Position numbers and translations under genes: made by a program. Shown here piece after piece: positions 563-58,795 of a stretch of 64,000 nucleotides of DNA (the first letter of the stretch is position 1; each line of letters starts with the position of its first letter). The notes below the pieces were generated by a model. That model was given only the letters and a program-made list of their open reading frames with translations. It was not told the DNA's origin and did not search any database. The DNA is from Okamejei kenojei. Its lineage: Eukaryota. The stretch spans positions 1,860,001 to 1,924,000 of the forward strand of contig CM069149.1 in the NCBI GenBank assembly GCA_035221665.1, written 5' to 3'.

Positions 563-665
563 TGAAGATAGACACAAAATGCTGGGGTAACTCAGCGGGA
601 CAGGCAGCATCTCTGGATCGAAGGAATGGGTGACGTTTCGGGTCGAGACCATTCTTCAGACTGAT
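563..665 (-). mobile_element. Penelope-derived short repeat with a hammerhead-like core
   Basis: The reverse complement of 632-659 is CTGAAGAATGGTCTCGACCCGAAACGTC; homologous to 13135-13265 and to the PLE tail at 46261-46395. Confidence 0.8.
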
Positions 666-1497
666 TCAGTTAGCTGACTTCTGCATATTAAATGGACAGC
701 GGAAAATTGCAAACTGTGTGTGCAGAAGCAGAAGAGAAACAGCCAGCTTTGTTAAATTGGCTGCCCTATTTGAGTCTAATAGATAAATAAAATCTCCCAA
801 TGAACTGTCAGAGGGCAGAATTGTGAAGCCAGCACCCTGGCACTTAGCTTCATTTTGCGGCTTTCCAGGAGAAGTAACAGTGGGCATTAAGTACGCGAGC
901 CCACGTGAAGCTGAGTGTACTCGGTGTCGATGTTAATCATAGCACCATGTCAGAGAGATTTCTCATCATTTCTGCTATAACATTGTTGGATGAATGCAAG
1001 AAATGCCACCAGGTTATTTTATTATGCAGTGCATAGTGAGGGAATCAAGAGGGGAATAATTTTAAGTGGTTCCCTGAAGGAGTGCGGTTGATTACGGAAC
1101 AATTGATTGCACTGTCTTTATGCATGATTTAATGTTCGTTGAAAAATTAGGGTTTACCTTTCAGCCACTTAAGGACAGCATATCCAAGTCTCACCAGAAA
1201 GAGGATGTTCTGTCACTTACTGACGAGTCCTCACTGCGGGGATAATGAGATTATAAAACTGGACTAGTGGGTCCAGGAGCACAAGGTATATAAGTATATT
1301 AGTACTGTATATAAGTATATTATAGGTAGGATCAGGTGTGATTTAAATGTTTTTCAGATTGTTAGCTTGTTGGATTTAACTTTTTGTGGGGCTTTGGGGC
1401 CACACATATAAAATCTTATCTTGTATGAATAAAAACTGTAATTTGGAGTACAGTTTCCAAAGCAAATTAACAAAACAAACATCATTCAGTCACAGCT

Positions 1498-3400
1498 CAT
1501 AGAGTAATTGTCATAGTGTCATAGAGCATGGAAACAGGCCCTTAGGCCCAGCATGTCTATGCCAACCAAGGTGTCCAATCTATACTAGTCCCACCTGTCA
1601 GCATTTGGCCCATATTCCTCTGAACCTTTCCCATGCATGTACCTGTCCAAATGTCTTTAAAATATTGTTATTGTTTCTGCCTCAACTATATCCTCTGGCA
1701 GCTCATTCCATAAACCTGTGTGACGAAATTGTCATTGGAGCAGAATTAGGTCATTCAGACCATCTACTCTGCCATTTAATTATGGCCGACCTATCTTTCC
1801 CTCTCAATCCCATTTTCCTGCCTTCTCCCCATAACCTTTGACACCCTTACTCATCAACAATCTGTCAATTTCCGCTTTAAACATTTCCAATGACTTGGCC
1901 TCCACAGCTGTCTGTGGCAATGAATTCCACAGATTCACCACAATCTGACCAAATAAATTCTTCCTCTACTCCTTTCTAAAGGTGTGTCCTTTTATTCTGA
2001 GGCCATGCCCTCTGGTCCTAGATTTATCCTCTCCACATCCAGTCTATCCAGGTATATCATTATTTGGTAAGTTTCAATTAGCTTCCCCCTCTTTTCCTCT
2101 GATTCTTGATTCCCCTACTCTGGGTAAAATACACTGTGCATCTACTCTATCTATTCCTCTTATGATCTTGTACATCTCTATAAGATCACCTCTCATTCTC
2201 CTACGTTCCAAGGAGTACAGTCCTAGCCTGGCAACCTCTCCCTATAGCTCAGGACCTTGGGTCCTGGCAACATCCTCGCAAATCTTCTCCACAAACTTTC
2301 CAGCTTAAGACCATCATTCCTATGGCAGGGTGACCAAAACTGACTGATGAAGGTCAATGTGCCAAAAACCTTCTTGACCACCTTATCTACTTGTAATGCC
2401 ACTTTCAAGGCATTATGTTCCTGCTCTCCTAGACCACCCTGCTCTACAACTCTACCCCAGAGCCCTGCCATTCCTGCCATGGTTGCACTTCCCAAAATGC
2501 AATACCTTGCACTTATCTGCATTAAACTCCATTAACTCAGCCCACTTGCCCAAATGATCAAGATCTTGCTGCAAGATAACCATCTTCACTATCTACAATA
2601 CCACTCACTTTAGTGCCATCTGCAAATTTATTAATGATGCCATGCACATTTTCATCTAAATCGTTGATCTAAACCACAAACAGCAATGGACCCAGCATTG
2701 ATCATGGAGGCACACCACTAGACACACGAAAGTCTGAAAGACAACCTTCCGCAATTACTCTCTGCATCCTTCCATGATGCCAATTTTCTATTCAGTTGCA
2801 GGCTCACCCAGAGCAGCCTACCAGAACCTTGTCAAATGCCTTGCTGAAATCCGTATAAATAACATCCACAGCTCTGCCTTCATCAACGTTTTTTGGTTAC
2901 ATCTTCAAAAAACTCAATCAGATTCTTGAGACACGATCTCCCACACACAAAACTGTGCCAACTATCCTTAATCAGCCCTTGTCTATCTATGTTAACCCTC
3001 AAAGTTTTGTAACTTTCTAACCACAGACGTTAGGCTCATTGGCCCGTAGTTCCAGGGTTTTGCATGAAGCCCTTCTTCAATAGAGGCATGAAATGTGCCT
3101 CCCTCCAGTCTTCCAGTTCCTCAAACATCTTTAATGATGAGTCATATCACAGACACGGCACCTATAATTCCTTCTCTAGATTCCCACTTTGGCCTTGAAC
3201 ATATCTGATCTGTCCCGGAAGATTTATCTACCTTCATATGGGGTAGGACGTTTATCATCTCCTTGACCTTAATTCTGATTGCCCTCAAGGCATTTCCATT
3301 GACTGCCCCACGTCCTTGGTCTTCATGTCTTCCTCCATGGTAAAACAGCATGGTTGAGTTGGTCTAAAGGGACTGTTTCTGTGCTGTATGACTCTGTGAC
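1498..3400 (-). mobile_element. Cluster of decayed CR1 fragments (family A, with a family B tail nested at about 1735-2050)
   Basis: Minus-strand ORF remnants such as 'FWSPCHRNDGLKLESLWRRFARMLPG' and 'MKVDKSSGTDQI', plus CR1 3' tails ending in (ctatga)-like repeats. Confidence 0.8.
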
Positions 3401-3699
3401 ACTATTTGGGAATGAAGCGGGAAAGGTCATGGATGTTGTTGTTAAATGCACTAAAATATAAATTGTAAAAGTTACTTGCTCCCCAGGTTCAGACCATCTT
3501 CAACCGTAAGCATTCAATTGCAGTTTGCAGCCGCATGGCACATTAACAGATTTTTGTGTCAGTAATCAAATGAAAACCTGGCATAGGATTTAATGGGTAG
3601 GCATATGAAGATGGGAAAATTAATAATGTTGTTTTACAGAAGCAAATAAGGATTTTTGAGGCACAATAACTGGATTCCATTGTGCCAATGACAACTGCC

Positions 3700-3820
3700 T
3701 TTGAATAGGAAAGATTTGGAGGGATATGGGCTGTGCGCAGGCTAGTGGGACTAGTCAATTGGTCAGCATGGATGAGTTGGCCCCAAGGGCCTGTTTATGA
3801 ACTGTATAGCTCTATAACTC
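3700..3820 (+). mobile_element. CR1 3' tail fragment
   Basis: gaataggaaagatttggagggatatgg...gggcctgttt...tatagctctata, matching other CR1 tails. Confidence 0.65.
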
Positions 3821-3902
3821 CAAAATAACATCAGGTAACAGTACCAATGAGAAAATAGCCTTTGCTATCATTAACCTTATACCTAGATGATACCTAAACC
3901 GG

Positions 3903-4222
3903 CCCAGTGGCACAGCAGTAGAATTGCAGCCTTACAGCGCTTGCAGTGCCAGAAACCTGGGTTCGATCCCGACTACAGGTGCTGTCTGTACGGAGTTTGT
4001 ACGTTCTCCCCATGACCGCTTGGATTTTCTCTGAAAATCTTCGGTTTCTTCCCACACTCCAAAGACATACAGGTTTGTAGGTTAATTGGCTTGGTATAAG
4101 TGTAAAATTGTCCCCAGTGTGTGTAGGATAGTGATAATGTGCAAGGATCGCTGGTCGGTGCGGACACGGTGGGCTGAAGGGCCTGTCTCCGCGCTGTATC
4201 TCTAAAGTAAACTTAACTAAAA
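3903..4222 (+). mobile_element. tRNA-derived SINE (HE1-like chondrichthyan SINE)
   Basis: A-box-like tggcacagcag, B-box ggttcgatcc, shared core ggtgctgtctgtacggagtttgtacg, CR1-like 3' end and (ctaaa)n tail. Confidence 0.85.
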
Positions 4223-5717
4223 TAGAAAAAAACTATTTATCGATGTTTTGATTTGGATGAAGGTCAAAGTGAGCCTTGGGAAATGCCAAAAAATGATGAT
4301 GGGGTGCTGCACATTTCTGAATGTTATCATTGGTTGAAGTTTCATTTGGAGTTTAGAATAGGAAGCACAGAAGATCAGAACAAAGGATCACAACATGCAC
4401 TTTGCAAACTAACCATTGCAGACAGGAAGCAGCATTTTAAGGAGTTCAATTTCTTTAAAGAGTTCTGAAATTGCATTTTTTAGACAAATTTGCAATCAGG
4501 AAACTGCCATTCATCTTGCTTATTTACATTTGCCAGACCATCTCATATTTTCTGTTAAGTTTGCTTTCAGTTAGCAGATGTTTGCTCTTTTGCACTATGA
4601 AATAAGATGATTGCAAGATAAATGATTAAACATTAAGCTCTGCTGTCTACATGTTTGATATGATTTTCTGGTATGTTTTCCCCTTATGTACCGTAAAACC
4701 TTCCACATCGGTAGGCTCACTGGGTTTCATTTTAGTTAAATGGCATTGACGACTGAACACTTCAAGGTCTGGCTGGTTTCAGAGAGCACAGAAAGTATGC
4801 GATGTCTTTCTCCAACAAACTATGATGTACATCCTATGCTGTCACTACCGTATGCTCACTGCTGCTAGATGCAGCCATCTCTGTCACTTGTCTGGAACTA
4901 AAGAAAGTCCTTAACCTGTCATAAATGTGCGTTCCCTCAGCTGCAGCAGTGTTACTTCATCCATGCTGCCACTTCATCATGTCTACTGCTCTGTTCGGGC
5001 AGAAATTTGGTAGTAGTGGAACTCTTCTCAACTGGCTACCTATAATACATTTCTAAACAAGTTGAAACATCTTCAAATGTGAGATCCAAGTCTTTGCAGC
5101 GTAAGTGGAGGTGCACTTCAGAGACACTTCTACTGACCCAGTGTAAGGAAAGATTCTCAGAAGGATCCCTGTTGTGTTGCATCAGCAATTTTGCCTCAAC
5201 TCAACTAGCATGTTCAATGTACTCAGTATAATGGCCCAGATTTCCTTGATTGGAGCCACCAACAGTATTCTGGATGAAGCAGCATCGTGTGGAGAGAAAT
5301 GGACAGATATCCTTTCAGTTCATGATGTTTCTTCAAACTTCTTCAGTCTGACCAGAATCATCGTCTGACCATTCCTATCCCACCGAGTTCCGCCATCACT
5401 TATTTTCACAAGATTCCACCATCTGCAGTTTCTTTTGTCGCTTTTCTTGATTGGAGTTTGCTGTCCACATTTTTCATTCCGCAGAGTATACGAGATTGCA
5501 TTTTGCTGGTCAAGCTCTGAAGGCGGATGGTGATTCCACGGACAGCAAAGATGTGACTGAGTGAAGCAAGTGGACCAGAACAACCCTCACACCCAGGTCT
5601 GCCGTACAGCAAAGCTGACAACATTTACCACTGCGTCTGAATCTATCTGACTTCTTGTGAACTCCAGCAGAACACTGCTGGGAAATAGTGAATAAAGCTA
5701 AGCCATTAATATCTGGA

Positions 5718-6194
5718 TACCATATAAACCATATTACAATTACAGCACGGAGACAGGCCCTCTCGGCCCTTCCAGTCCGTGCCGACCATTTGTTTTCCCC
5801 TAGTCCCATCTACCTGCACTCAGACCATACCCCTCCATTCCCTTCACGTCCATATACCTATCCACTTTACTTTTAAATGTTAAAATCGATCCTGCCTCCA
5901 CCACCTCTGCTGGAAGCTCATTCCACACAGCCACCACCCTCTGAGTAAAGAAGTTCCCCCTCACGTTACCCCTAAACTTCTGTCCCTTAATTCTCATGTC
6001 ATGCCCTCTTGTTTGAATCTTCCCTACCCTCAATGGGAAAAGCTTATCCACGTCAACTCTGTCTATCCCTTTCATCATTTTAAAGACCTCAATCAAGTCA
6101 CCCCTTAACCTTCTGCGCTCCAAAGAATAAAGACCTAACTTGTTCAACCTTTCTCTGTAACATAGTTGCTGGAACCCTGGCAACATTCTAGTAA
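5718..6194 (-). mobile_element. Young 5'-truncated CR1 LINE (ORF2 C-terminus intact)
   Basis: The ORF at 5800-6186 gives the same peptide as the C-terminal 128 aa of ORF 20925-21506. Confidence 0.92.
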
Positions 6195-6699
6195 TATGTT
6201 GGCCAAATATGACATCTCATGTATTTGGCCAACATTTCCAGTATAAAACACAACAAAGTACAGGCCAATAACTTTCCCTTATCTTCAATTTGTAATTCCA
6301 TAAAATCACCCCTTTTTATTCTAAAGTGTTTGTGGGGGATGTTGAACCTCTTGTAAAAGGAGTGTCAGGTGTGGTGCTAATTGTAAAAATCTAGAATACG
6401 ACCCAGCCCATTACAAACACACCTACTTCTGAACTACAACATGTTTTCCTGTCGTGAACTTCAAGTGTAGCTGGGTTCTTACCATAGATCATGGCTGCAG
6501 ACAAGGTTCCCAGAACTCAGTGAAGTTAGCAGGTAAAAACAGGTGGGATCGGCCAGACCAAGCAAGTAAATAACGCTGTTGCATTCTCCACAAGCCTACT
6601 GGGGCAATAATAATATGCATTTATCCTGGTGTGTACTGTACCATCATTTGTTTGTGTAAAACTATTTTTTATGATTTAATTAAAAAGATGTTCCAACCA

Positions 6700-6855
6700 A
6701 CATCAAACACTTTGTCAGGTACATGGATAGGAAAGGTTTGGAGGGATCTATGCCAAATGTGAGCAAGTGGAATTAGCTTGGATGGGGAATCTTGGTCAGC
6801 ATGAACTAGTTGGACCAATGGACCTGTTTCCATGCTAGATGACTCTATGACTGAC
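6700..6855 (+). mobile_element. CR1 3' tail fragment
   Basis: caggtacatggataggaaaggtttggaggga...gactctatgact. Confidence 0.7.
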
Positions 6856-7234
6856 AAGTAAACTATGCTGAGTCCATGGTTAGTTACTAAGTCTAGTCAC
6901 TCTGCAGAGGTGGTGATCACTGTAGATTATGTGAGGAATCCTGAGATATTGGCCCAGCCACTGAAGATACTACAGTCATAATACCTTGCTTGGTTTACAT
7001 ATTTATAACATGGCCACGTGAGGAGTTATGGACTCTGATTCTGTCTGCGGAGACCACACTTTTGCACATTTTCAAATGTTAACTTTGAAATGTTCAGCAA
7101 AAGCATGATGATAGGATGTTAGGTGAATAGGGCCTTTAGTCTCTTTGGTTGCATTTTTCAAATGCTCCACTGTTTTTCTTTTCAGATTACAACAACGGTA
7201 ACCTGAGATTTAGTGAGTTATCCAGGATGAATCT

Positions 7235-8330
7235 CTTAGAGTCATAGAGTCTACAATCTTCTGTCCAACTTGGCCATGCTGCCCAAAAGTCCCATCCAAA
7301 TTAATCTAATTTGCCTGCCACTGGCCCATATCTTTCTAAACCTTTCCATGTAACTGTTGACATGTCTTTTACACATTGTTATTTTACCTGCCTCAACTAG
7401 TTCACCACTCCTTTCATATACCCACCCCCATCTGTGTGAAAAAGTTGCCACTCAGTTTCCCATTAACTCTTTCCCATCTCAACTTAAACCTGTGCCCTCG
7501 AGTTTTTGACTCTTAAATACACTTTTCTCTCGGTCTATTCCCTCAATACTTTATACCCCTCAACCTGCTCGGCTCCAAGGAATAATGCCATAGCCTGCCC
7601 AATCCTTCCCCATAGCACAGGTCGTCGAGTCCCAGCAACATTATCGTAAATCTTCTATGCACACTTTCCAGCTTAACCTATCCTGCAGCAGGGTGACCAA
7701 AATTGAATGAACACTTAGAGTGTGACCTCACGAACATCACGTACAATTGTAAAATAACATTGAAATTTCCATACTCATTTCCCTGGATGATGAAGGTCAG
7801 TATGCCAAAGCCTTCCTGACTTTTGTATCTACGAGCAATGCACTTTCAGGGGACTGTGTCCTTGTACGTTTTGAACCCTTGGCTCTAAACACTCCACAGG
7901 CCTCTACACGGCAAAGGTGCTGCCTTAGTTTCATCACAAAGTGCAACGCGTCACACTTGAATCAAACTCCATTTGCCATCCCTGGCCTATTGCTCAGCTG
8001 ATCAACAACACACTAATTTTTGATAACTATCTTTATTGTCTACAACAGCACCTGTTTTTGTGTCATGTGAAAACTTAATAACCATGCCTTGTACATTCTC
8101 ATCCAAGTAATTGATATCGATGACAAAGAGCAATTGCATAGACCCTGAGGCGCATTATTAGTCACAGACCACTAGGCTGATAAACATCCTACCATTACTG
8201 TCCTCTGTTGCCGCCCAACAATTTGGTATCCAGTTAGTTAGCCCTTCCTTGATCCTATGCAATTTAACCTTCCAGAGCAGCCTACCACACAGAACCTTAT
8301 CAAAGGCCTTACTGGTGTCCATATAGTCCA
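7235..8330 (-). mobile_element. Old CR1 LINE fragment (RT to 3' end)
   Basis: RT remnant 'YMDTSKAFDKVLCGRLLWKV'; the 3' tail lies at about 7235. Confidence 0.8.
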
Positions 8331-8450
8331 TGTGCCCGGAGAAAACCCACGTGGTCACAGGGAACTGTGTACAGACAGCACCCGTAGTCAGGATCAAACC
8401 CGGGTCTCTGGCGCTGTAAGGCAGTGTCTACTACTGCACCACCGTGCCCC
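8331..8450 (-). mobile_element. SINE 5' half
   Basis: Reverse complement of the SINE head (gggcacggtggtgcagtagtag...gggtttgatcctgactacgggtgctgtctgt). Confidence 0.75.
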
Positions 8451-9129
8451 ATACAGTGCAGAGTCTGGCCCTGATTTTCTTAGTATCCCTACACTATTGA
8501 CTATTATATTTGTGCAGTTGGCAGCGAAAAACAGCATTCTGACATTTATACAAGTTAATTGGCTCATTATCTGCTTCAGAAACATTATAGGATCATTATT
8601 GCATAGGTGTTTTGATTGGCTGCTGGTGTTTGTTGCTACAACGGTAATTTCATTCTCTGTGATTGTATATTTTAAATGCCATGCACCTCTCAGTGACTAT
8701 ATGCTTCACAATTATGACATTTTATAGTCTGCGAGTTACCCTCCAGAGTTCCTTTCTCTGCTTGAGCACATTCCTTATAATTTCTGGATGTAAACCTTCA
8801 TATTGTGATCCACAGTACATATTTACCTTTTAAAAAAAATTACATCTCAATAACTATCTCATTAGCTTAATTTAGCACTCAGCTACTCAGGCGTCATCTC
8901 CTAAAATTGGAGGTGGTTTTCAAAAATCATAACTGAGGGGAGTTATTCTGGATGCTGACAACAGTCTCCGCCAGGGTGAAAGTATGCTGACGTGAATCTG
9001 GGCCCCTGCCCTCACTGAAATAGTTCCTGTGATTCACTACGACTGAAAGAGACGTCATCTAGTGGAATTAATGTGCGCTCGTAGAAAGCCCAAAAAAAAT
9101 CATATTAATTTGGATCCAGCCACTTGAGT

Positions 9130-9200
9130 CGAAATATCACCTATTCATTTTCTCTGGAGATGCTGCCTGACCCAATGAGCCACTCCAGCCTTTTGTGCCT
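9130..9200 (+). mobile_element. Penelope-derived short repeat fragment
   Basis: ttctctggagatgctgcctgaccc...actccagc...ttgtg, homologous to 13170-13230. Confidence 0.65.
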
Positions 9201-9265
9201 ACACTCCGTTCAAAGCCCAGGTCAGCCTGTGGCTGAGACAAGGATATGTGGGATTAATGGTCAGA

Positions 9266-12175: not shown

Positions 12176-12300
12176 GTCTCTCGTTTCCCTGATCCCTGAC
12201 CAGTCTGAAGAAGGGTCTTGACCCGAAACGTCGCCTATCTCCTTCGCTCCTTAGATGCTGCTGCACCTGCTGAGTTTCTCCAGCTTTTTGTGTAACCCTT
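12176..12300 (+). mobile_element. Penelope-derived repeat (subfamily 2) with an intact hammerhead-like core at 12205-12232
   Basis: CTGAAGA-AGGGTCTTGACCC-GAAAC-GTC; near-identical in reverse complement to 23272-23365. Confidence 0.82.
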
Positions 12301-13061
12301 GAGCACAACAGGTCATGCAAAAAGAGAAATTAAACAGAGTGCAGAATATAGTGTTGCAGCTGCTGATAATGTGTAAAGAAAAGGGTTGCAAAGAGGCAGA
12401 AGAGCTGTGTCTGGGGCTATTGGTCAGGGCCTAGGTCAGCCTGTAGCTGAGACAAGGATACTTGGACATAAGGGCCAGAAGGCATGGATGTGCGACCTGG
12501 ATTCAGTGATCAAGCCACCATTGCTTGGATTGTTGGTAGCGGGTGCTGGAACAACCTAGGAGCCAGGAGATTCTACTGGCATGAGGATAGAATTTAAACA
12601 TTACCATTGTGTTTCTTTAACAACCTTAACATGTGGTCCATGAATAAAAAGCTTGGAGTATTATGATGAGATTAAAAATGGCAGCTCTTTGTTCATGTGC
12701 ATGTCACAATAGTAAAGATACCTTTTCAAAATCGTAATGAAATGCAAAGGATTTTTGCCATTAAACTATCCCTGAACCTAAAGTGAATACATGTTCTAAA
12801 TCAATTATTACGTTAGTTTATCTGAGTTACAAGAAGCCACAGCCCAATGGAGCAGGATATTAATATGTATTTTGATATGGTATTTATTTTAAAACTGGGT
12901 TCAGCGTACAATGATCGGGTTGACTAGGAAGTTGTAAGAAGACAATGTAGTTCTTCCAAAGAAGGGAAGCACTGTCAGTACTCACATTGCCTGTTCTTCG
13001 CCAACATCACTTCAACATTGGATTTTCATTTGGATATTGAGAAAGCCATCATTATTTCAGT

Positions 13062-13265
13062 GAGACAGACAGCATCTCTAGAGAGAAGAAATGGGTGACA
13101 TTTCAGGTCGAGACTATTCATCAGGCTGATCAGTCTGAAGAAGGGTCTCGACCCGAAACGTCACCCATTCCTTCTCTCCAAAGATGCTTCCTGTCCCGCT
13201 GAGACATTCCAACATTTTGTGTCTATCTTCGGTTTAAACCAGCTTCTGCAGTTCTTTCCTACACA
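13062..13265. mobile_element. Palindromic Penelope-derived element with a hammerhead-like core at 13135-13162
   Basis: Left arm 13062-13125 is a degenerate reverse complement of the right arm; central ctgatcag palindrome at 13126-13133. Confidence 0.85.
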
Positions 13266-13394
13266 CTAGCCATCATTATTTAATTGAAACCACAAAATGT
13301 CCTGTGACTGTACAGTTTACTGGCCTGGAATCTGGTGATTGGTGTTCACCATCATCACATAGTGAGACTGACATCAGATTTGGGATAAACAGGA

Positions 13395-13470
13395 AATGCT
13401 GGAGTAACTCAGAAAGCATCTTGGAGAGAAGGAATCGGTGATGTGTTGGGTCGAGACCCTTCTTAGATTT
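13395..13470 (-). mobile_element. Penelope-derived repeat fragment
   Basis: aatgctggagtaactcag...gggtcgagacccttctt. Confidence 0.7.
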
Positions 13471-20840: not shown

Positions 20841-21750
20841 GGGTGGCACGGTGGCGCAGCGGTAGAGCTACTTGCTTGCAGCACCAGAGGCCCGGGTTCG
20901 ATCCTCACTACGGGTGCTGTCTGTATGGAGTTTGTACGTTCTCCCCGTGACCTTATGTGGTTATTCTTCAAGAGCATTGAATATAGGAGTAGGGAAGTAA
21001 TGTTAAAATTGTACAAGGCATTGGTAAGACCAACTCTGGAGTATGGTGTACAATTTTGGTCGCCTAGTTATAGGAAGGATGTCAACAAAATAGAGAGAGT
21101 ACAGAGGAGATTTACTAGAATGTTGCCAGGGTTCCAGCAACTATGTTACAGAGAAAGGTTGAACAAGTTAGGTCTTTATTCTTTGGAGCGCAGAAGGTTA
21201 AGGGGTGACTTGATTGAGGTCTTTAAAATGATGAAAGGGATAGACAGAGTTGACGTGGATAAGCTTTTCCCATTGAGGGTAGGGAAGATTCAAACAAGAG
21301 GGCATGACATGAGAATTAAGGGACAGAAGTTTAGGGGTAACGTGAGGGGGAACTTCTTTACTCAGAGGGTGGTGGCTGTGTGGAATGAGCTTCCAGCAGA
21401 GGTGGTGGAGGCAGGATCGATTTTAACATTTAAAAGTAAAGTGGATAGGTATATGGACGTGAAGGGAATGGAGGGGTATGGTCTGAGTGCAGGTAGATGG
21501 GACTAGGGGAAAACAAATGGTCGGCACGGACTGGAAGGGCCGAGAGGGCCTGTCTCCGTGCTGTAATTGTTATATGGTTATCATCGGTTTCCTACCACAC
21601 TTCAAAGATATACAGGTTTGTAGGTTAATTGGCCTTGTATAAATGTGAAATTGTCCCCAGTGTGTGTGGGGTAGTGTTAAAGTGCTTGGATCGCTGGTCA
21701 GTGTGGAATTGGTGGGCTGAAAGGCCTGTTTCCACGCTCTGTCTCTAAGC
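20841..21750 (+). mobile_element. SINE (20841-20972 and 21581-21750) interrupted by a young CR1 (about 20971-21580)
   Basis: A-box at 20852-20862 and B-box at 20895-20904. The SINE halves rejoin colinearly. CR1 ORF2 C-terminus 'YKALVRPTLEYGVQFWSP...GRWD' is uninterrupted. Confidence 0.92.
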
Positions 21751-23271: not shown

Positions 23272-23365
23272 TAGGGTTACACAAAAAGCTGGAGAAACTC
23301 AGCGGGTGCAGCATCATCTAAGGAGCGAAGGAGATAGGCGACGTTTCGGGTCGAGACCCTTCTTC
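23272..23365 (-). mobile_element. Penelope-derived repeat (subfamily 2), core truncated
   Basis: Reverse-complement match to 12207-12299. Confidence 0.8.
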
Positions 23366-30807: not shown

Positions 30808-30930
30808 AGTCTCGACCCGAAACGTCACCCATTCCTTCTCTCCAGACATGTTGTCTGTCCCGCTGAATTACTCCAGTATTTTGTGTCTATCTTCAGTTTA
30901 AACCAGCATCTGCAGTTCCTTCCTGCACAT
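30808..30930 (+). mobile_element. Penelope-derived repeat, 5'-truncated within the hammerhead core
   Basis: gtctcgacccgaaacgtcacccattcc...catctgcagttccttcc. Confidence 0.82.
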
Positions 30931-36263: not shown

Positions 36264-37335
36264 ATAGAAACATAGAAACATAGAAAATAGGTGCAGGAGG
36301 AGGCCATTCGGCCCTTCGAGCCAGCACCGCCATTCATTGCGATCATGGTTGATCGTCCTCAATTAATAACCCGTGCCTGCCTACTCCCCATATCCCTTGA
36401 TTCCACTAGCCCATAGAGCTCTATCTAACTCTCTCTTAAATCCACCCAGTGATTTGGCCTCCACTGTGGCAGGGAATTCCACAAATTCACAACTCTCTGG
36501 GTGAAAAAGTTTTTTCTCACCTCAGTCTTAAATGGCTTCCCCTTTATTCTAAGACTGTGGCCCCTGGTTCTTGCCCAACATTGGGAACATTTTTCCTGCA
36601 TCTAGCTTGTCCTGTCCTTTTATAATTTTATATGTTTCAATAAGATCCCCCTCATCCTTCTAAACTCCAGTGAATACAAGCCTAGTCTTTTCAATCTTTC
36701 CTCATATGACAGTCTCGCCATCCCAGGCATCAATCTCGAGGATGTCCTTCCTCAAATTAGGAGACCAAAACTGTACGCAATACTCCAGATGTGGTCGTAC
36801 CAGAGCCCTATACAACTGCAGAGGATCCTCTCTACTCCTATCTTGAAAACCTCTTGTTATGAAGGCCACCATTCCATTAGCTTTCTTCACTGCCTGCTGT
36901 ACCTGCATGCCAACTTTCAGTGACCGGTGTAAAGGACACCCAGGTCTCGCTGTACCTCCCCCTTACCTAACCTAACCTAACCCCATTGAGATAATAATCT
37001 GTTCCCTTGTTTTTGCCACCAAAGTGGATAACCTCACATTTATCTATATTATACTGCATCTGCCAAGCATCTGCCCACTCACTCAACCTGTCTATGTCAC
37101 CCTGCAAACTCCTAACATTCCCTTCACAGTTCACATTGCCACCCAGCTTTGTGTCATCTGCAAACTTGTAGGTGTTGCTCCTAATTCTCTCTTCCAAATC
37201 AATAATATATATGGTAAACATTTGCGGCCCCAACACCAAGCCTTGCGGCACTCCACTCGCCACAGCCAGCCATTCTGAAAAGGACCCGTTCACTCCTACT
37301 CTTTGCTTCCTGTCTGCCAACCAATTTTCTATCCA
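36264..37335 (-). mobile_element. CR1 family B fragment with RT core
   Basis: ORF 36967-37320 has 'SGVPQGLVLGP...FADDTKLGG'; ORF 36702-36908 has 'LVRPHLEYCVQFWSP'; tail (catagaaa)n. Confidence 0.93.
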
Positions 37336-38028
37336 TGATGTGGGGGTGGGGGAGGTGGGGGAACTGGCTGGGCTGGGGATTTGAAGAGCATGCCATTGCC
37401 ATGAGGAGGGGTTGGCTGAAATTTGTGATGAAAAAAGCAGGTGGGAGGGGGTTTGGAAAAGGGGAGAGCCTCCCCGAAGACGCTGACCAGCAAGACCATT
37501 GGGTTGAAGGGATAGAGGGTTGAGTGTCTAGGCCACATGGAGGCAGTCAGGAACCTGATGAGGAGGAGGTGGTATGAGTATGGTTGCATTGCAGCAGATG
37601 GGCAAAATAATGAAAGATTAATCTGGGGTCTTATAAATTGTCTAACTAAAATGTATCTGCTAGTTTCCGATACTCAAAAGGATTGTGCACGAGGAATGGT
37701 ATCATCTGCGGGTGGTTGAGACCAAAATTGAGACCAAGAGTGAACCGGAATAGTTGTTCCCATGTTCGCTGCATGCAAATGAAAAACAATTTTCAGTTGT
37801 ATAATGCAAAAAATAACAGCATGGTATGATTGAGTTAAGAAGGATTTATATTTTAGTAAAGGCATGTTAATAGAGATAAATAAAACTTAATTTTGCCTGT
37901 AAGCTGTGAACGTCAGGAATTATGAAAAGAGGCTTTTGCTGAAGTGAATAGATATACCAGGTACAATTAGTTGTCTGTGGGTGTAGTCTGTACTTTGTAT
38001 CTTATGATTGGATGTATATCTTGTACAG

Positions 38029-40799: not shown

Positions 40800-41280
40800 T
40801 CTTCTTCCCATTTCCACACTGACCTTTCTGTCCTGGAGCCTCCTCCATTGTCAGAGTGAGACCAAACGCAAATTGGAAGAACAGCACCTCCCATTCCGCT
40901 TGGGCAGCTTACACCCCAGCGGTATGAACATTGATCTCTCTGAATTCAAGTAACCCTTGCATTCCCTCTCTCTCCACCCATCCTCCACCCAAGTATTTGG
41001 ACCAGTTTCAATGTCATCTTATTGAGTATTATTGTCTATACATTGTGCCCACAGCTAGCAATGTCTTGTTTCCTTTATCATCGTCACTTTTTGGCATAGC
41101 TTACATTCAATTGTTCTATATCTCTGTATATCACCGTCTATATCTCTCATTTCCCTATCCTCCAACACTCAGCCTGAAGAAGCATCTCGACCCAAATGTT
41201 ACATCTTCATTTTCTCCAGAAATACTGTCTTACTCGGTCTCACCCACTGAGTTACTCCAGCTTTTTGTGTCTATCTTCTA
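40800..41280 (+). mobile_element. Penelope-like element 3' fragment (GIY-YIG C-terminus plus terminal repeat)
   Basis: 'LLHCQSETKRKLEEQHLPFRLGSLHPSGMNID', homologous to 46055-46160; degenerate core cctgaagaagcatctcgaccc. Confidence 0.8.
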
Positions 41281-41620
41281 TAGGAACGTACAACATAGGA
41301 ACTGGCCTTTTGGCTCACAAGGTCTCTGTGCTGAGCATGAAGCCAAAACCAACATTTTAGCTACCTGCGCATAATTCATATCCCTCCATTCCCTGCATAT
41401 CCATGAGCTTATCTAAAAGTTTCTTAAATCCCACTATCATATCTGCTTCCACCACCACACCTGCAGTGTGTTTCACACATCTCCCTTAAACTTGCCCCCC
41501 TCTCACCTCAAAGGTCTGCCCTCTAATATTGATACTACCAGCCAAGAACATAGATTCTTACTGTCTATGTCTCTCATCATTTTGTATACTTCTATCAGGT
41601 CTTCCCTCAACCTCCAGCTA
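41280..41620 (-). mobile_element. CR1 3' fragment
   Basis: Similar to 43135-44290. Confidence 0.7.
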
Positions 41621-45376: not shown

Positions 45377-46395
45377 CTACTACAAACCTACTGACTCCCA
45401 TAGCTATCTTGACTACATTTCTTCCCACCCTGCTTCCTGTAAAGACTCTATCCCCTACTCATTCTTTAGGGAACAGAGGTTCCCCATTTCCATTATTATA
45501 GATGAGGCTCTCACTCGGGTCTCCTCAATATCCTGCAACTCTGCTCTTGCTTCCCCTCCCCCCGTTTGTAACATGGACAGAGTCCCCCTTGTCCTCACCT
45601 TCCACCCCACCAGCCGTCACAAACGGCATATAATCCTCCAACATTTTCGCCTCCTCCAACGGGAATCCCACTACTGGCCACATCTTCCCATCTCCACCCC
45701 TTTCTGCTTTCCGCAGAGACCGTTCCCTCAGAAACGCCCTGGTCAACTCGTTCATTTCCTACCCAAACTACTTCCCAGGCACTTTCCCCTGCAACCACAG
45801 GAGATGCAACACCTGTCCCTTTACCTCACCACTCGACCCCATCCAGAGGCCAAAACAGTTTATCCAGGTGATGCAGAGGTTCACTTGCACCGCCTCTAAC
45901 CTAATCTACTGTATCCACTGTTCCAGGTGTCAACTTCTGTACATCGGCGAGACCAAGCGCAGGCTCGACAATCGTTTTCCTGAACACCTCCGCTCAGTTC
46001 ATCTTAACCTACCTGATCTTCTGGTGGCTCAGCCTCCCATTCCCAATCTGACCTGGGTCTCCTCCATTGTCAGAGTGAGACCCAGTGCAAATTGGAGGAA
46101 CAGCACCTCATATTTCGCTTGGGTAGTTTTCACCCCAATGAACATTGACTTCTCTAACTTTCGACAGCCGTTGCTTTCTCTCTCCATCCCCTCCCCCTTC
46201 CCAGTTCTCCCAGCAGTCTTACTGTTTCCGCCTACATTCGACCTTTGTCCCTCCCCTGACATCAGTCTGAAGAAGGGTCTCGACCTGAAACATCGACAAT
46301 TCCTTCTGTCCATAGATGCTGCCTCACCTGCTGAGTAACACCAGCATTTTGTGTTTACCTTCAATTTTACCACCATCTGCAGTTCTTTTTTAAAC
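45377..46395 (+). mobile_element. Penelope-like retroelement 3' part: RT C-terminus, GIY-YIG endonuclease and terminal repeat
   Basis: 'YKPTDSHSYLDYISSHPASCKDSIPY', then 'FTCTASNLIYCIHCSRCQLLYIGETKRRLDNRFPEHLRSV' (GIY-YIG); hammerhead-like core at 46266-46293. Confidence 0.9.
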
Positions 46396-46528
46396 ATGCA
46401 CAAAATCTGCCTGCCATGCAGTACCTTTACTGGGAACAATTATCTTTGGATGCAGTGATGTACCACAGTACTTGAAGGTTCTTTCATTGACATTCACCAG
46501 TCCATTTGGGGAAGGGAGTAGGGTGATT

Positions 46529-46620
46529 GAAAGTAGTCCTGACCAGAAACATCACCATTCCATATTCTCCAGGGATACTGCCTGACTCACGGAGTTACTC
46601 CAACACTTTGTGTCTTTTCA
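46529..46620 (+). mobile_element. Penelope-derived repeat fragment
   Basis: gaaacatcacc...ttctccagggatactgcctgac...gagttactccaacactttgtgtc. Confidence 0.65.
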
Positions 46621-48348: not shown

Positions 48349-48471
48349 ATGACAACAGATTTCTGATGGAATCAGAAGTCATCACATTCTTCTCCTGCAC
48401 ACTAAACAGCAGATATCAATTATCTCTCCTTCCCAATTCAGGTCACTTCCACTGAACAAATCGCAAACATC

Positions 48472-48683
48472 AGATAGACACAAAATGTTGGAGTAACTCA
48501 GCGGGACAGGCAGCATCTCTGAAGAGAAGGAACGAGTGCCGTTTCGGATCAAGACCCATCTTCAGTCTGATATCTGATCAGTCTGATTAGAGTCTTCTCT
48601 CCAGAGATGCTGCCTGACCCGCTGAGTTACTCCAGCATTTTGAGTCTATCTTCAGTTTAAACCAGCATCTGCAGTTCCTTCCT
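48472..48683. mobile_element. Palindromic Penelope-derived element
   Basis: Inverted arms at 48472-48530 and 48594-48650 around a degenerate core and ctgatcag. Confidence 0.85.
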
Positions 48684-48739
48684 AAATTTCAAACATCATT
48701 GGGAGTTCATAATTACCACTGAAGCCACCACCCCTCTTT

Positions 48740-48982: not shown

Positions 48983-50337
48983 GTCATAGTCTAGTACCAA
49001 GTAACGGAGTACAATGGATATTTGATAATCATGTCTTGTGCCCACCCAGTCACACCCAAAGAACACAACTTGTCAATAAGTGTAGAAAGAGTTAATGAAA
49101 ATCATTCATTTTTACAGGTCTTTTGTCAGCCATTCAACAAACTACTCAGTCTGCTATGTGCTCTCTACTAAACTGATTTACACCTCAACATTGATGTGGA
49201 ACAATGGAAATTATGATATTGAAACAATGGAAAGTCTTTTTTATGATTTCTCAGGTGTGAGAAGTCTGAATGCTTTAAAAAGTAAATTGGGATTTCAACA
49301 AAAACTGCTGTTTTGCAAATCTTAAAAATGTTGGGAAAAGTTGATCATCCATTGCTGCCATTATATTCTGTATAGATATCATTAACCATCATTTAAAATA
49401 CAGTCAATATGCCATATACGCTTCATAATTATAGCACATTCATTTTCTTATACTTCATAACCAGGAAAAAAAAAATCACTTGTATAAATGGAACGAGTGT
49501 GTACAGCTGATGTGAATACATGATAGAGCAAAAGCACAGGCATATTCCGTTGAGGAAAATAGGTTATAAATGGAATATTTTAATAACGGTCTGTGTTGAT
49601 CAGGGAGAATTTAAGGCAAATGTAAGGTTTTTATTTATAAATGTTTAGATTGTGACATCCCTAATTAACCACTGAAGTGTCCTCTCTGCACACAAAACAA
49701 CAGAATGCCCAGTCGCAAAAATATGTTTCATTGCTCTTCAGTAGCCGTTTATATTCACACAATAAAGGAAATAGCTTAACACAATGTCTGCTACTTAAAC
49801 ACTTGTGAAAATAATTTCTTTGCTGCATTTGCCAACACATATATTTCAGCTATGAGGTTGTATGAAGAAATAAAATATAATTTTAAGTTCTGCTCAGTTA
49901 CTGTTTTTTGCATTATTAACACATACAATTTAACATATCATGGCTTCCAAAAATAGCCTGTATCAAGTGAATATACTACTTATCGTATTCCCAGAGTTGA
50001 ATTTATGTAGAGTGAAGGTTAAAATTATTGTGTTTCTGCTGTGATGACTGTATTCAGCATTTTGATGTGAAAAATCTTACATCAGTGTCACCTGGCTAAA
50101 TAATCAGGCAGTGTTATGCAGTCATCCCATTTTCTTTCACTCTTTATTAACAGCCATCTTTGGCTCTCTTTCTGTCCTAATTGGAACATCATACAGCCTT
50201 GGCAGTTGTACTATTCAATAGAATGATTAATTTTTCCTGACTGTTCTGAGCTCAATTGACCTGTTTTGACCTATTTGTCACTGATCGCAACCTGACAGGC
50301 GCTAGCAGCCTCCAACGATTATGGCTTTTGAGATTAA

Positions 50338-50469
<132 letters not shown>

Positions 50470-53400: not shown

Positions 53401-56400
53401 AACATTTGTTACACTAGTATTGCAGCACCTGGAAAATTCAATAATTTGGACATATTTCAAAATAATAGTTTGCATGATCCAAAGGAAAATAGATAGTTAT
53501 ATTCAGAGATGTGCTCAAAATATTTAGCAAATATGCTCAAATATTTATCACCAGGTTTAACAGTGCTTGGTGGAAAGTCAAATACCTAATATCTCCAGTG
53601 ATGTCAAATCTGATGCAGAAAGTGACTACACTGCAATTCTGTATAAACTTTGTAGAAATAAATTTTCATGAGAAATGTTGTAACTGAAAATATTTACTTT
53701 GTAAGAATGTGCGCAATGGATCTACTAATAAAATTGTTTTGTTTGTTAACTTCTGTGCATTTGTCAGACTCTAAGCTAGTGTGTTGAAATGCTAGGTGTC
53801 CACCTGCTTTGAATTCGAATGCATGCTATTACTGAATGTTCTGTTAGTTTTGTGAGGTTCTCGTTTGCCATTAGAATGCTTTAAATCAGGCTGAAGCAAA
53901 CTGATTGGTGTTGAAGAAACTAAAAAGCATTCCCCATCTTCTTTTGACCAAATGTACTTCAGAATTACTGAGTCAGATAATAATTCGATTTTATTCAGTA
54001 TTTTCAATGAAGATACCTTCCAAGGGAATTAGAAGCAGTTTGACCTATAGATAAAAATAAAGTTAATTCTCTCATGTGAATAGGGAATATACAGAATGAA
54101 AAGTGTGAAAAAATAGAAAATATGATAAAACTCCAAAGCCGTTCACAGTTTCTTGCATTAAATGGTAAAATTCATTTTCTGAGATATTCCAGTTGCAGTA
54201 TTAATCGGTCACAACTTTTTATGGATTCTGTTTATCGAGACCTATAATAGTTTTAAAAGACAGTCATAAAAAATCAGATTGGGTTTTTTTTCGCTTTATC
54301 GCGCTGCTTAAAAAATGTTTTAATTAATAATGTGAATAAGTTGGTGTGCTAATGATATTCAAGTTTCAGACTTAAGCATAAGGTCTGGCTGAATCGGCCA
54401 TCTACCAAAAGGCTTTCATACTCCTTTACTGAATGGTAGACAACCACATCATTTATTCCATTTTGAAAACAAAAATCAATATATCTATAAAGTGACTCAT
54501 AAATTAGAGCTAGCTCATGGAATGTTTGTACAGTGCTGGCTTTTTGAAGGCACCCTTTGCATTTTTCTTTCACCTCTATATTTGAACTAGAGTCACTGTA
54601 AGAGCCTCATTAGGGGACATTAGGGACTTCAGCCAAGCAGAATTCCAGAGACTGCTTTCCTCTTATTAATGCATAGCAAAGTAGGATGCACTTAAATATT
54701 TCATAGGTATTCAGTAATTTGTGTGTAATCGGCTTGTTAGCAGACCAGTAGAAGTAGAACGGGTCTGTGAAATGGTGTTAGAGATTGCATGGGTAATTTA
54801 TAGACCTTTGACATTGGAAATAGCTGTTATTGGAGACTGGAATGAAGCTGTGAAATAGAACTGGCAATAAGTAGAAAACTTAATAAAGGTTTTGTAACAA
54901 GCATCTATGGGGATAACAACCCACTTGGTCGTTTTCAAGCAGCTATAATTTATGACATATGCAATATATCAAGTGCATACGATAGCATTATGGAGTATTG
55001 AAATGAAAAGGGTATTTGCAACATTAGGTCCAACTTCCTGCTAGGGATGTGATTAAATGATTAATGAAATGTCCCTTTGCATATGCATTTTGAAACAGCA
55101 ATTAAGCACAGGCTGAAAAAGAATCCACCAATCCTATCATTTTTCAGCTTATCTCATTCTTGTTATATAAATCATAGAGAATTTGTGAGGAGCAATATGT
55201 CTGACCTGAAGTGGTTACTAAAGCATGAAAGAGAGTCATCATTTCTGTATAAAATAATCATAAATAAATAGGTTAATAATTTAAACCTATGAACGATCTC
55301 TTGATTTATTATTGCGGAGGTTTATTCCTACCTTTTCTTTGGTAGTGTCCAATTTCGCAGGAATGATTGGCATAATTAAATACGAGAATGAATAGACATT
55401 ATTATGTTGCTCATTGCTGGTAAACAATAGCAAGGAAAAGAGACAGCAGATGTAGCAAAAAAAAATGCATGAAAATGCATGTTCATTGATCTGACAGAGT
55501 TTATACTTTAAATAATAAGAGGCCTGCAAGCTAGCCTATAATTACAGAAAGGAAAGTGGCAGCTTTGGCATTTCCAAATTCTATGTCATTTTAAGGGTGC
55601 TTTGTGAATTTGTCATCAATAATAATTTCGACAGAGAGGCATTGCCTCACATAACTTTGCAAAGACCTTCCTTTTTTGCTTTCATTTAACGCAACGTAGG
55701 CTTGTATTGGAATTTAAATCTTTTGATTTCCATTGAAAATTGAACCAAATTGAATCTGTGGTATAGCATTGCCACTATTTTCAGCTTTGTTCTTTGTAGT
55801 GATGTTAACAAACGTGAGCAGATGTCAATGTTATATAGTCTAAGTTTGACGGGCAATGCCGATAACTATTTTCATGCTTTCAGTTGTTGCAGAGCAGTAA
55901 TGGCTTAGCTAACTGCAGTTTTCTACAACTGCTGCAGTGTAGTTGAAGGGCATTCTTGTTTTATTATATTTTAATTATTCATTAAGATTCACATATATAG
56001 AAAATGTGAAGACTGCATATTATCTAAAGATTTGCCTAATTTAACAAACTAGGGCTGTTTATATTCATTCTCCTTATTTTTTTTGCTGGACTTAAATATA
56101 CATGACAATTATTAATGTGTGCATCTTACGACTGGGTGTTGGTATATTGGAATTTGGAAGTCCAATCTTTTCCTCATTAGGCGTAGACAAATACTCATCT
56201 TCAGAAATAGGTATTGTATTGGAAGAGGAAATCCTGACTGATTTTATGCTCCATAGCTTAGGTTCAATGTTAATCTTGGCCAGAAATCAGGTCATATGCT
56301 ACAGATAAAGGATTGACCTGGAAACTTTCTAGTCTGTATGGCTCGGGTACTTACTAGTTACATACACTGAACCACTGGGGACCATTGTCATTTAAGTATA

Positions 56401-56831
56401 AATACACCTTGAAATGTGCTACAACATATGAAGTTTAATATGAGTGCTTGAAAGCACTGTGTATAAAAGCAAGAGATGAAGTGTCTGAATCTCTGCAGGG
56501 AGGAATGAGGAAATTCCAATAACACTCTCTTTAAAGATTGCATTTTAGTTTTATTTAAAACAAAATTCTACCATGTGCATTTTCTTCCTAGATTTTGAGA
56601 TGGACATCTTCTCAAATTCCTTGCTCTTTCATTCCAACATGTTTGACCTGCTTGTTCTTGCTGTTTTTGTTACAAAAGTTATATTTTTCTATCTGAAGTC
56701 TTTTTAAACATTTTTGGCCTTTTTTTAAATGTTCTTATACGATAGAATGAAACCCTTTCTCTACTAAGCTAACATTATACACAAGGGATTGGGTAATTTG
56801 AGGGCTTTATTTGAAAACAACTCTTTTTGTC

Positions 56832-56911
56832 TTGCATCTGATGCATGGGTTTTTAGTTGCATCTGGGGCATGGGTTTTTAGTTGCATCTGGGGCATGGGT
56901 TTTTAGTTGCA
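56832..56911. repeat. 25-bp tandem repeat, about 3 copies (ttgcatctggggcatgggtttttag)
   Basis: Directly visible. Confidence 0.9.
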
Positions 56912-57655
56912 TTTAGCTGGATGTTCAGCATGCTAAGTGCTCACCATGCAGGAATAGAACATAGACCATAGATGAGTACACCACAGGAAGTGGCCCATAG
57001 ACACACAATGTCTGTGCCAAACATGATGGCAAGACCAAACACTTATTGACCTGCTCATAATCCACATCTCTCCATTTGAAGATAAAATATTCTCAATGCC
57101 AAGAGTTGTTTTTTCTTTTACAGAATCCAAGTTTCTCAAACCCATCCGTAGTACCACTTACAAATTAATTGTTAACACATCTTCTTGATTTATCTCCAAT
57201 CAGTGGCATTGTCCACTAAGGGTTTAAGCCCATGTTGTTGTACACACTGTATTAACACAGATTAAGGCATTCAAAATGCTGATGCAGTTAATGAGTCTTT
57301 AGCTTTAGTGTAGCTTAATTAAAAAAATGAAAAATATTTAAGTAAACTCCGTAATCACCTTATTTTCATTTGCATTACCACATGTATTTTTAGTATATGT
57401 CTTCTAATCACTTTTCATCCAAAATAATTCAAAATCTTTCCAGAGAAGCATAAGATAAGCATTGATTACTTTTCAATTCTAGCATGAGCATGGGGTAGGC
57501 ATTCATTTTTAAATAATCTCCTCAGAAAATGACATAAGGAAAGTAAAAATTGAAATGTAGACTTGAAATATAATTTTGCAGTTCACACTGATGTTATTTT
57601 TTTACTAACTAATTATAAGGCCATTATATTACTAAAAAGGATTGTGTATTAGTTT

Positions 57656-57840
57656 TGTGTAGGAAGGAACTGCAGATGCTGGTTTTAACTGAGCATCTTA
57701 ACATGAGCAAAACTAGTTCTCAAAAGATAGACACAAAAAGCTGGAGTAACTCAGCTGGTCAGGCAGCATCTCTGGAGAAAAGGAGTTGACATTTTGGGTC
57801 GAGACACTTCTGAACAAGGCCTATTCCTTTTCTCCAGAGT
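57656..57840 (-). mobile_element. Penelope-derived repeat with an insertion and a partial inverted arm
   Basis: aggaaggaactgcagatgctgg...agatagacacaaaaagctggagtaactcagc...gggtcgagac...ttttctccagag. Confidence 0.78.
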
Positions 57841-58539
57841 TTGCATTTCAAGTGGAGGAGAAAGAACAACATGGACTCATTGGGCAAAATGACTGTTTCT
57901 GGTGATTTGTATAAAGTTCACTGGGACTTCATGTTTCAATATTTTAAATGAAACTTGAGATCCAGTGAATATCGCATAGTAATTTGCAGCTCGAGTTGTC
58001 ACTTGTGTCTTAATTAAATGCTCTGTACATGGTGCTCAATGCAAATCAATAATCTAAGGGAAAGTTTAAAACTGTTACTGAGACTTAGAGGGAATTATAT
58101 CCATGATGATCATTATTGTCTAAATTAGTTCTACCATGGCAATAACAACTGCTAGGAATAGACAAATGGAAGCAGTATGTTAATAGCTAAGTTTGCCAAA
58201 GGTAAAATAATGGTCCTAAAAGCATTACTGCAACTTTGCTGTTAAAACTGTATATTCAGACATGAAAAAAAATCCTCACAGTCTTTTGATTGTCATCAAA
58301 ATAAGCCCAAAATATTAATCATATTATTTCATTAAAAACAAGAATCTGAACATGGAAACTCAAAGGAAAAGTAAAGTCATGTTGTTAATTGTAGATAAAA
58401 TACAAATAAGAGAATAGAAATGAATTTACTTTGGCTGAAATAGAGTAGCATAATTCTGTTTCTTTAGTCTTTTCAAAAAAGTTCTGCTTGAGCTAGAGCT
58501 TGAGCTTCTGCTGGCCACGTCATAAAATGTTTAGCAAAA

Positions 58540-58795
58540 AGGAGATTGCAGAATGAACTCAGCAGGTTGAGAAGTCACTGTGAGGGAATGGAATTGTCAA
58601 TGTGTCTGGTCCAGAGTCTGCATCAGGACAGTCCCAGCCTAAAACGTTGGTAATCCCTTTCCCCCATAAATGCTTCTCGACCAGTTGAGTTTCGCCAGCG
58701 CTTTGTCTATTGCCCAAGATTCAAGATTCTTTGTGTCTCCTCCAGCAGTCTATTTTTTTCCTGCTCCAGATTTGTGCATCTGCAGTCTCCTGTGC
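58540..58795. mobile_element. Old degenerate palindromic Penelope-derived element
   Basis: aactcagcaggttgagaag pairs with cttctcgaccagttgagtt; ends catctgcagtctcctgtg. Confidence 0.5.

Follow-up and report, generated by a model that had tools for sequence, protein, structure and literature searches.

The introns of FOXP2 in Okamejei kenojei contain about a dozen short repeats with hammerhead-like ribozyme cores, which raises the question of whether these repeats act upon the gene or were left there by a mobile element. The original prediction proposed a non-autonomous family centred on the ribozyme, with two neighbouring cores able to pair and cleave the intron. Our analysis of the window (the whole 64-kb stretch of DNA) and of the wider genome makes it very probable that the repeats are 5′-truncated terminal repeats (pLTRs) derived from an autonomous Penelope-like element (PLE), which carry all or part of a minimal hammerhead and, in FOXP2, are likely inert, neutrally decaying passengers.

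Repeat copies in FOXP2 and their parent element

The repeats were found in FOXP2 introns as claimed, with plus-strand exons flanking them. Positions 1–32400 of the window are the intron upstream of the exon at ~32401, and a further plus-strand FOXP2 exon was located 43 kb upstream (C19:1,816,785). The host gene contains a FOXP-CC domain, and a forkhead exon 3.5 kb past the window scored 64.7 bits for FOXP2, compared to 59.4 for FOXP4 and 58.4 for FOXP1. As all exons are on the plus strand, the two intact cores (12205–12232 and 13135–13162) are intronic and sense; they lie 930 nt apart, as had been stated. BLAST of positions 13120–13270 against the window returned 15 matches, query included, at or beside the 13 places originally proposed, and a search of the window anchored solely on sequence 3′ of the cleavage site found 15 arms (nine plus, six minus) that covered all 13. 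Two inverted pairs were present (13062/13135 and 48472/48594). The features are as follows.

32401–61000, plus: FOXP2 coding exons at ~32401, 33559, 39501, 50419, 59460 and 60946
564–669, minus: pLTR stub; core present, first stem II pair broken
9130–9214, plus: old pLTR stub lacking the ribozyme; begins at ~+19 of the core
12177–12299, plus: young pLTR stub with intact minimal hammerhead core (12205–12232), ending at the first 3′ end site
13044–13057, plus: left copy of a 14-bp target-site duplication, read from the sequence; right copy at 13268–13281
13058–13267, both orientations: single hairpin insertion; inverted arm (~13058–13130) and sense pLTR with tail
13386–13464, minus: pLTR stub starting at +3, without C3–G5
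23273–23365, minus: young pLTR stub starting at +2, without C3 and U4
30809–30929, plus: pLTR stub with tail, starting at +10
40827–41281, plus: older, longer 5′-truncated copy; end of endonuclease frame and decayed pLTR
45377–46396, plus: 5′-truncated PLE; broken RT-thumb/linker (CX4CxxC)/GIY-YIG frames and pLTR with tail
46541–46615, plus: old pLTR stub without core
48472–48690, both orientations: hairpin insertion made up of two pLTR arms in opposite orientation; NUH missing from the minus-strand core
57656–57811, minus: pLTR stub with split tail, starting at +4
58540–58795, plus: old decayed pLTR stub starting at ~+21, 79 % identical to the nearest reference

BLAST within the window agreed with the earlier view that the GIY-YIG fragment at 45377–46396 has the repeat as its 3′ end. 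The GIY-YIG match of this fragment (Pfam, E=0.0029) is below the curated cut-off, its endonuclease is 72 % identical to that of the parent over 124 aa, and its own core (46267–46294) has decayed, with ACAT in helix III.

The claimed Penelope origin was substantiated by an intact autonomous parent with an RT and GIY-YIG frame. This element (L131) has the structure pLTR-ORF-pLTR, with a unit of 3,954 nt and cores 3,954 nt apart, and its open frame of 1,197 codons encodes a 1,185-aa product with RT, CX4CxxC and GIY-YIG that begins past the tail, 162 nt after C3. A sister copy (L081) matched RVT_1 at E=7.8e-6 and GIY-YIG at E=0.0018, both under the curated cut-offs. The hallmarks of EN+ PLEs were present, namely a single ORF with RT and C-terminal GIY-YIG, a pLTR on both sides of it, 5′ truncation and an inverted 5′ copy. 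A CX4CxxC linker precedes GIY-YIG in both the parent and window frames; CX2-5CxxC at this position is described as marking Neptune/Nematis and as absent in Penelope/Poseidon (PMC8557442). Judged by its sequence, the family is an autonomous EN+ PLE of Neptune/Nematis type, as the linker fits this group and not Penelope/Poseidon. Copies form a continuum of sizes between ~70 nt and 4 kb, and 70 young copies comprised 15 inverted, 38 with native upstream sequence and 17 direct.

Hammerhead core and insertion ends

Both the minimal type I layout and the palindromic ACGU helix III claimed for the intact cores are present. Within the window, only 12205–12232 and 13135–13162 retain all catalytic bases, a 4-bp stem II and ACGT. 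The bases that define a minimal hammerhead (C3–A9, G12–A14, A15.1–U16.1 and H17), along with the extra base after A9, G10.1–C11.1 and the palindromic 15.2–16.2, were found in the parent, these two copies and 20 of 325 copies in an unselected sample drawn from arbitrary genome stretches. Helix I is ~2 bp as anticipated (computed +2.4 kcal/mol), rather than the 4–5 bp expected of a minimal hammerhead. The suggested hammerhead scan succeeded in part: a general minimal-hammerhead descriptor gave four matches in the window, compared to a mean of 0.03 (maximum 1) in 100 shuffles, but no Rfam hammerhead family was detected there at E≤10, where four unrelated chance matches were returned. Every descriptor match in 1.76 Mb belonged to this one family. 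Stem II changes across 155 copies were mostly G-C to G-U/A-C decay; A-U occurred in one or two copies per pair and a U-A to U-G variant in eight.

Folding predictions have the first nine bases of the core paired with the tail (P=0.97). Even for the parent they do not give the ribozyme fold as the ground state, so that cutting, if any, would depend on the protein of the element, as in the anole PLE. The stubs carry the usual hammerhead motif of a PLE, with putative self-cleavage after H17.

The 5′ ends of the sampled copies were concentrated just before the core, with 120/325 at −7 to 0 (15 per position). There was no excess at the cleavage site among these 325 copies, as nine ends fell at +27 to +30 (2.25 per position) compared to 2.65 per position at +1 to +26. 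Junctions resolved by target duplications fell at −1 to −4 in 11 of 20 cases, although those placed by local alignment are uncertain by 2–3 nt. In contigs of uncertain kind from four public runs, which do not bear upon starts, ends, strand or expression, copies broke off at −2 to −4 into mixed flanking sequence. A cap-type extra G was clear in only 1/20 resolved junctions and is not established. The 3′ ends of the 70 young copies clustered at +92 to +95 and +121 to +133, the second mainly at about +126 to +130 (a bin at +100 is a reference limit), and these two sites match the optional 30–40-nt tail of EN+ PLEs.

A 5′ pile-up without an excess at the cleavage site indicates that the templates were probably uncut RNA, copied to its start. 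The pile-up likely marks the start of the element RNA, as judged from DNA junctions. As has been measured for the anole PLE, the element's RT would likely initiate internally on the element RNA, at the two tail sites, and copy the uncut RNA; starting in the 5′ pLTR, it would reach the RNA 5′ end ~3 nt before the core and leave stubs of 95–135 nt. It is conceivable, at somewhat less than an even chance, that the hundreds of thousands of stubs are run-off ('strong-stop'-like) cDNAs to a start 3 nt before the core, and that a 10-bp helix with the tail masks the core until protein binds the tail. Masked in this way, the ribozyme would fire only with the element's protein on the tail. If true, the genome would be a natural read-out, for an element of Neptune/Nematis type, of the start site, of the sites where RT initiates and of the silence of the ribozyme. 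Short stubs might also re-transpose in trans.

The pile-up could instead reflect a splice acceptor (pyrimidine tract and CAG|T), or RT stalling at a folded structure, rather than a transcription start, which we regard as rather unlikely. A pyrimidine-rich run ending in CAGT does precede the core in nearly all parent-linked references, and the predicted pairing of core and tail would suit a stall. The letters at −2 and −3 (G 72 %, A 58 %, n=74), set against the exon-end consensus, also resemble exon ends. In Drosophila virilis, the 5′ end of helix I coincides with the 3′ end of an intron (PMC4209133), and transcription starts 46 bp ahead of a 75-bp intron (PMC2377424). However, the resolved junctions adjoin the target duplication without a common exon, and captured host exons upstream of the core were rejected. 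In several junctions, sequence on the 5′ side of the supposed acceptor is still present (−2 to −6), the upstream 60-mers are unshared in 81/86 (score <36), and no spliced joint at the pile-up site was seen among the matches listed for contigs of the four public runs.

Abundance, decay and the host gene

That the stubs are a self-propagating non-autonomous family (SINE- or retrozyme-like), with the ribozyme defining the unit, is improbable. Very high copy number, fixed ends and target duplications would fit such a family, and animal retrozymes are reported to derive from PLE pLTRs (10.64898/2026.07.22.740005). However, the pieces are terminal repeats of the autonomous element: they match the parent pLTRs (98 % identity for 12177–12299) and grade into long copies, few are intact at the core (20/325, as above), and the 5′ end pile at the cleavage site that a ribozyme-defined monomer requires is missing. 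The window holds solo or inverted copies and no tandem arrays, and the hairpin copy at 13058–13267 is a single insertion with its own 14-bp target duplication.

The exact core occurred 48,215 times in the genome (reversed controls, 0), alongside 87,509 endonuclease candidates, and the copy number of the family extrapolates to ~0.8 million. Arbitrary stretches totalling 800 kb contained 239 arms, and the window's 15 compare with 19.1 expected (p=0.21). FOXP2 introns contained 47 sense and 48 antisense copies; density in FOXP2 is ordinary and there is no strand bias. The same-strand clustering typical of arrays was not seen, with one pair within 1 kb among the first 100 exact cores listed. Intronic hammerhead motifs in these genomes are background, at about one exact core per 57 kb.

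Conservation was compared by non-CpG mismatches, base-matched between catalytic and downstream positions and leaving out columns that differ between subfamilies. The rates were similar for A (35/769 versus 51/766, p=0.08), G (27/309 versus 78/921, p=0.91) and T (11/152 versus 122/1994, p=0.60). Core bases hence decay like their flanks, an outcome the original prediction had named as counting against it. Catalytic G12 was lost in 42/153 copies and G16.2 in 58/152, which is CpG-type decay. In unmatched tests the catalytic bases seemed more conserved (65/1239 versus 664/6006; A 29/765 versus 134/1379), a difference confounded by subfamily differences and base composition, and there may be weak extra conservation of core adenosines. 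The core is identical across subfamily consensuses while the flanks differ, which points to selection on active parents. The signs of a domesticated intronic hammerhead were absent, with no core-specific conservation in the sampled copies and no enrichment or strand bias in FOXP2 introns.

We give almost no credence to the proposal that a dimeric hammerhead made of the sense cores at 12205 and 13135 cleaves the FOXP2 intron co-transcriptionally. Both are intact, sense and 930 nt apart, ACGU can make a 4-bp intermolecular helix III (−1.7 kcal/mol) and dimeric minimal constructs are reported to cleave at a low level in vitro (PMC4209133). However, the core at 13135 is predicted to be sequestered by its own inverted arm, which is transcribed before it, in a hairpin of −86.7 kcal/mol (z=−12), predicted stem II probability is 0.000 at 13135 and 0.15–0.23 at 12205, predicted inter-core helix III probability is below 1e-29, and helix I offers 2 bp at an unfavourable energy. 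The two copies are also of different subfamilies and ages, and ~390 same-strand pairs this close are expected by chance among the 48,215 cores. Taken together with the ordinary density and orientation and the decay of the core, FOXP2 is probably unaffected by the repeats.

Comparison with known systems

Minimal hammerheads in PLE pLTRs have already been published (Cervera and De la Peña 2014, PMC4209133), and our cores resemble those of metazoan PLEs in having all core bases, an extra nucleotide between A9 and G10.1, G10.1–C11.1 and a palindromic 15.2–16.2 without loop 3, in both pLTRs, and in occurring mostly as solo dispersed copies and opposite-strand pairs. They differ in helix II (4–5 bp here versus 7–8 bp) and helix I (2 bp versus 4–5 bp), although a D. 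virilis variant also has a 2-bp helix I. The 48,215 identical cores, with little sequence variety, contrast with ~4,000–9,000 motifs reported for coelacanth and Xenopus; the first half of the main text of that paper names no cartilaginous fish.

As in the Neptune/Nematis EN+ PLEs described by Craig et al. 2021 (PMC8557442), the family has a C-terminal GIY-YIG, CX4CxxC linker, DKG motif, 5′ truncation, partial tandems, an inverted 5′ copy and a 30–40-nt tail. Unlike them, it has a long Pro/Ser-rich stretch before the RT, and its 5′ ends are strongly concentrated immediately ahead of the hammerhead. We found no description of the family or its pile-up in the literature searched (mostly non-subscription papers, without Repbase).

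Animal non-LTR retrozymes share the type I hammerhead, PLE pLTR origin and solo monomers genome-wide, but form tandem arrays with a ribozyme per unit, whereas here each copy stands alone or inverted, and the cleavage site is not where the copies begin (10.64898/2026.07.22.740005).

The role of PLE hammerheads is described as an open question (PMC8557442). With its very large number of copies, its intact parent and its sharp insertion ends, the present family makes that role testable; its copies appear to be made from uncut RNA, stopping just before the core, which is relevant to retroelement biology. The anole Poseidon PAc (Frangieh et al. 2024, PMC11167929) belongs to another PLE clade, and its ORF starts inside stem II rather than 162 nt after C3. 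As here, its hammerhead lies ~100–130 nt before two 3′ end sites, its RNA template is uncut and no ends fall at the cleavage site, and protein-assisted cleavage has been measured for it.

Repeats, host gene and the two intact cores

On sequence grounds the repeats lie in FOXP2, a forward-strand host gene here, with a FOXP-CC domain and a forkhead exon for which FOXP2 was the best match; its exons were found with short motifs. The repeat of the original prediction was present, as BLAST with 13120-13270 as the query gave 15 matches in the window, the query itself counted, and a window search anchored solely downstream (3') of the cleavage site recovered 15 pLTR pieces (arms) over all 13 noted places. 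Its description as the terminal part of a GIY-YIG element was also upheld. The relevant features were:

12205-12232 (+): intact hammerhead core
13135-13162 (+): intact hammerhead core
13058-13267: single hairpin insertion holding core 13135, with a 14-bp target duplication
45377-46396: endonuclease fragment, of which the repeat forms the 3' end
5727-6194 and 21112-21579: two 468-nt arms, 100% complementary and 14.9 kb apart, each the 3' end of a LINE-like frame
36967-37527 (-): LINE reverse-transcriptase fragment (RVT_1, E=1e-13)

The 468-nt arms may stem from very recent insertion or from gene conversion, or may be an artefact of assembly, and several further dispersed LINE/SINE-like repeat families lie elsewhere in the window. 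The core runs C3-U4-G5-A6-A7-G8-A9, an extra A, a 4-bp stem II, G12-A13-A14, A-C-G-U and C17. A general hammerhead descriptor gave 4 matches in the window versus 0.03 in shuffles, and an Rfam scan of the window returned no matching model for the core. The copies at 12205 and 13135 were the only two fully intact ones in the window, and both were confirmed as sense and intronic in FOXP2.

Arbitrary stretches sampled at 16 places, 800 kb in all, held 239 arms (extrapolated to ~0.8 million per genome); on that basis 19.1 arms were expected in the window and 15 observed (p=0.21). The ~297 kb of FOXP2 held 47 sense and 48 antisense arms. FOXP2 is not special as a site of these arms. The proposal that cores 12205 and 13135 pair to cut the intron was not borne out by equilibrium folding predictions. 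Core 13135 lies within a hairpin whose sense strand is predicted to fold at -86.7 kcal/mol (z=-12), and the predicted probabilities are therefore 0.000 for stem II and <1e-29 for an inter-core helix III; helix I and helix III have predicted energies of +2.4 and -1.7 kcal/mol. Some 390 same-strand exact-core pairs ≤930 nt apart are expected by chance. Three exact cores within 110 bp (G000:C1:2018411-2018521, G000 being the genome), a tandem pair spaced 44 bp apart plus an inverted third, form a better natural-dimer candidate than the FOXP2 pair.

The parent element

The exact 28-nt core occurred 48,215 times across the 2.76-Gb genome, split evenly between the strands (reversed controls, 0), and an endonuclease query gave 87,509 candidates. 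Tracing copies with long frames led to full-length elements, including L131 (G000:C6:42872000-42881900, minus strand), which has an uninterrupted 1,185-aa frame and a hammerhead in its pLTR, 162 nt upstream of the Met. Its sister copies are 96-99% identical, indicating a young subfamily. The frame carries a long Pro/Ser-rich stretch ahead of the RT. By its linker sequence, the criterion for which PMC8557442 is cited, the element is of Neptune/Nematis rather than Penelope/Poseidon type.

Among 70 young copies picked by exact core, 38 kept native upstream sequence, 15 had an inverted 5' arm and 17 were direct stubs, and their 3' ends fell into two clusters, near +92 to +95 and near +121 to +133. 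Truncation, inversion and the tail that gives two 3' ends are all traits recorded for Penelope-like elements (PLEs). Minimal hammerheads in PLE pLTRs, their solo-copy dispersal, opposite-strand pairs and low activity are reported in PMC4209133, and PLE-derived retrozymes, one cartilaginous fish included, in a 2026 preprint (10.64898/2026.07.22.740005). None of the papers listed in our literature search was devoted to this family, which figures or supplements of the cited hammerhead and retrozyme papers may already list.

Positions of 5' ends and decay of the core

Of 326 copies found by downstream sequence alone, one at an edge was left out, and 5' ends were scored in 325.

Distribution of 5' ends relative to the core start
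≥31 nt upstream: 42 copies
-30 to -8: 22
-7 to 0: 120 (15 per position)
+1 to +26: 69 (2.65 per position)
+27 to +30, cleavage site: 9 (2.25 per position)
+31 to +63: 63

A missing subfamily was ruled out as the source of the pile-up at -7 to 0, since flanks were mutually unrelated in 81 of 86 such copies. Among 304 copies whose core head is intact, 20 had target duplications of at least 9 nt; in 11 of these 20 the junction fell between -1 and -4, and one of the 20 had a clear extra G. Contigs from four public runs had loose ends at -2 to -4, their flanks being mixed. A smaller peak at +40 (12/325 copies; at ≥88% identity, 5 of 7 belong to inverted insertions) could reflect either the alignment itself or a point at which inversion is favoured.

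The intact core was kept in 20 of the 325 copies. Among 156 copies spanning it, catalytic G12 was altered in 42/153 and G16.2 in 58/152, a CpG pattern. Unmatched tests found catalytic bases changed less than downstream ones (5.3% vs 11.1%; A alone, 3.8% vs 9.7%). Most of this apparent core-specific conservation, on which the original prediction was to be checked, vanished when non-CpG columns alike in four large subfamily consensuses were compared (A, 4.6% vs 6.7%, p=0.08; G, 8.7% vs 8.5%; T, 7.2% vs 6.1%), and inserted copies thus decay about neutrally. Compensatory change in stem II was almost absent among copies. The core was unchanged across subfamilies, which suggests selection on active parents.

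A reading of the pile-up and known systems

The family is ordinary in FOXP2, and it gives one testable clue to PLE mechanism. As the simplest reading of the pile-up, we infer that reverse transcription would begin at the tail sites inside the 5' pLTR and would copy uncut RNA as far as the RNA's start. The letters around -3 resemble the initiator consensus. For D. virilis Penelope, an internal promoter within the pLTR is reported in PMC2377424. Instead of such an RNA start, the pile-up may mark a splice acceptor or a point where the RT stalls.

Folding predictions for the parent RNA gave no active fold, whatever the context tried (stem II, 0.003-0.006). When the tail was included, it was predicted to be paired with the first 9 bases of the core (P=0.97, against 0.52 for a longer RNA); in L131 the pairing would join core +1 to +10 and tail +118 to +127. 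In the anole element, as described in PMC11167929, two RT start sites were measured, to which the two 3' ends of the skate family correspond; its ribozyme needs the element's protein in order to cut, and the main template is uncut RNA, with which the predicted inactive fold and tail pairing would agree.
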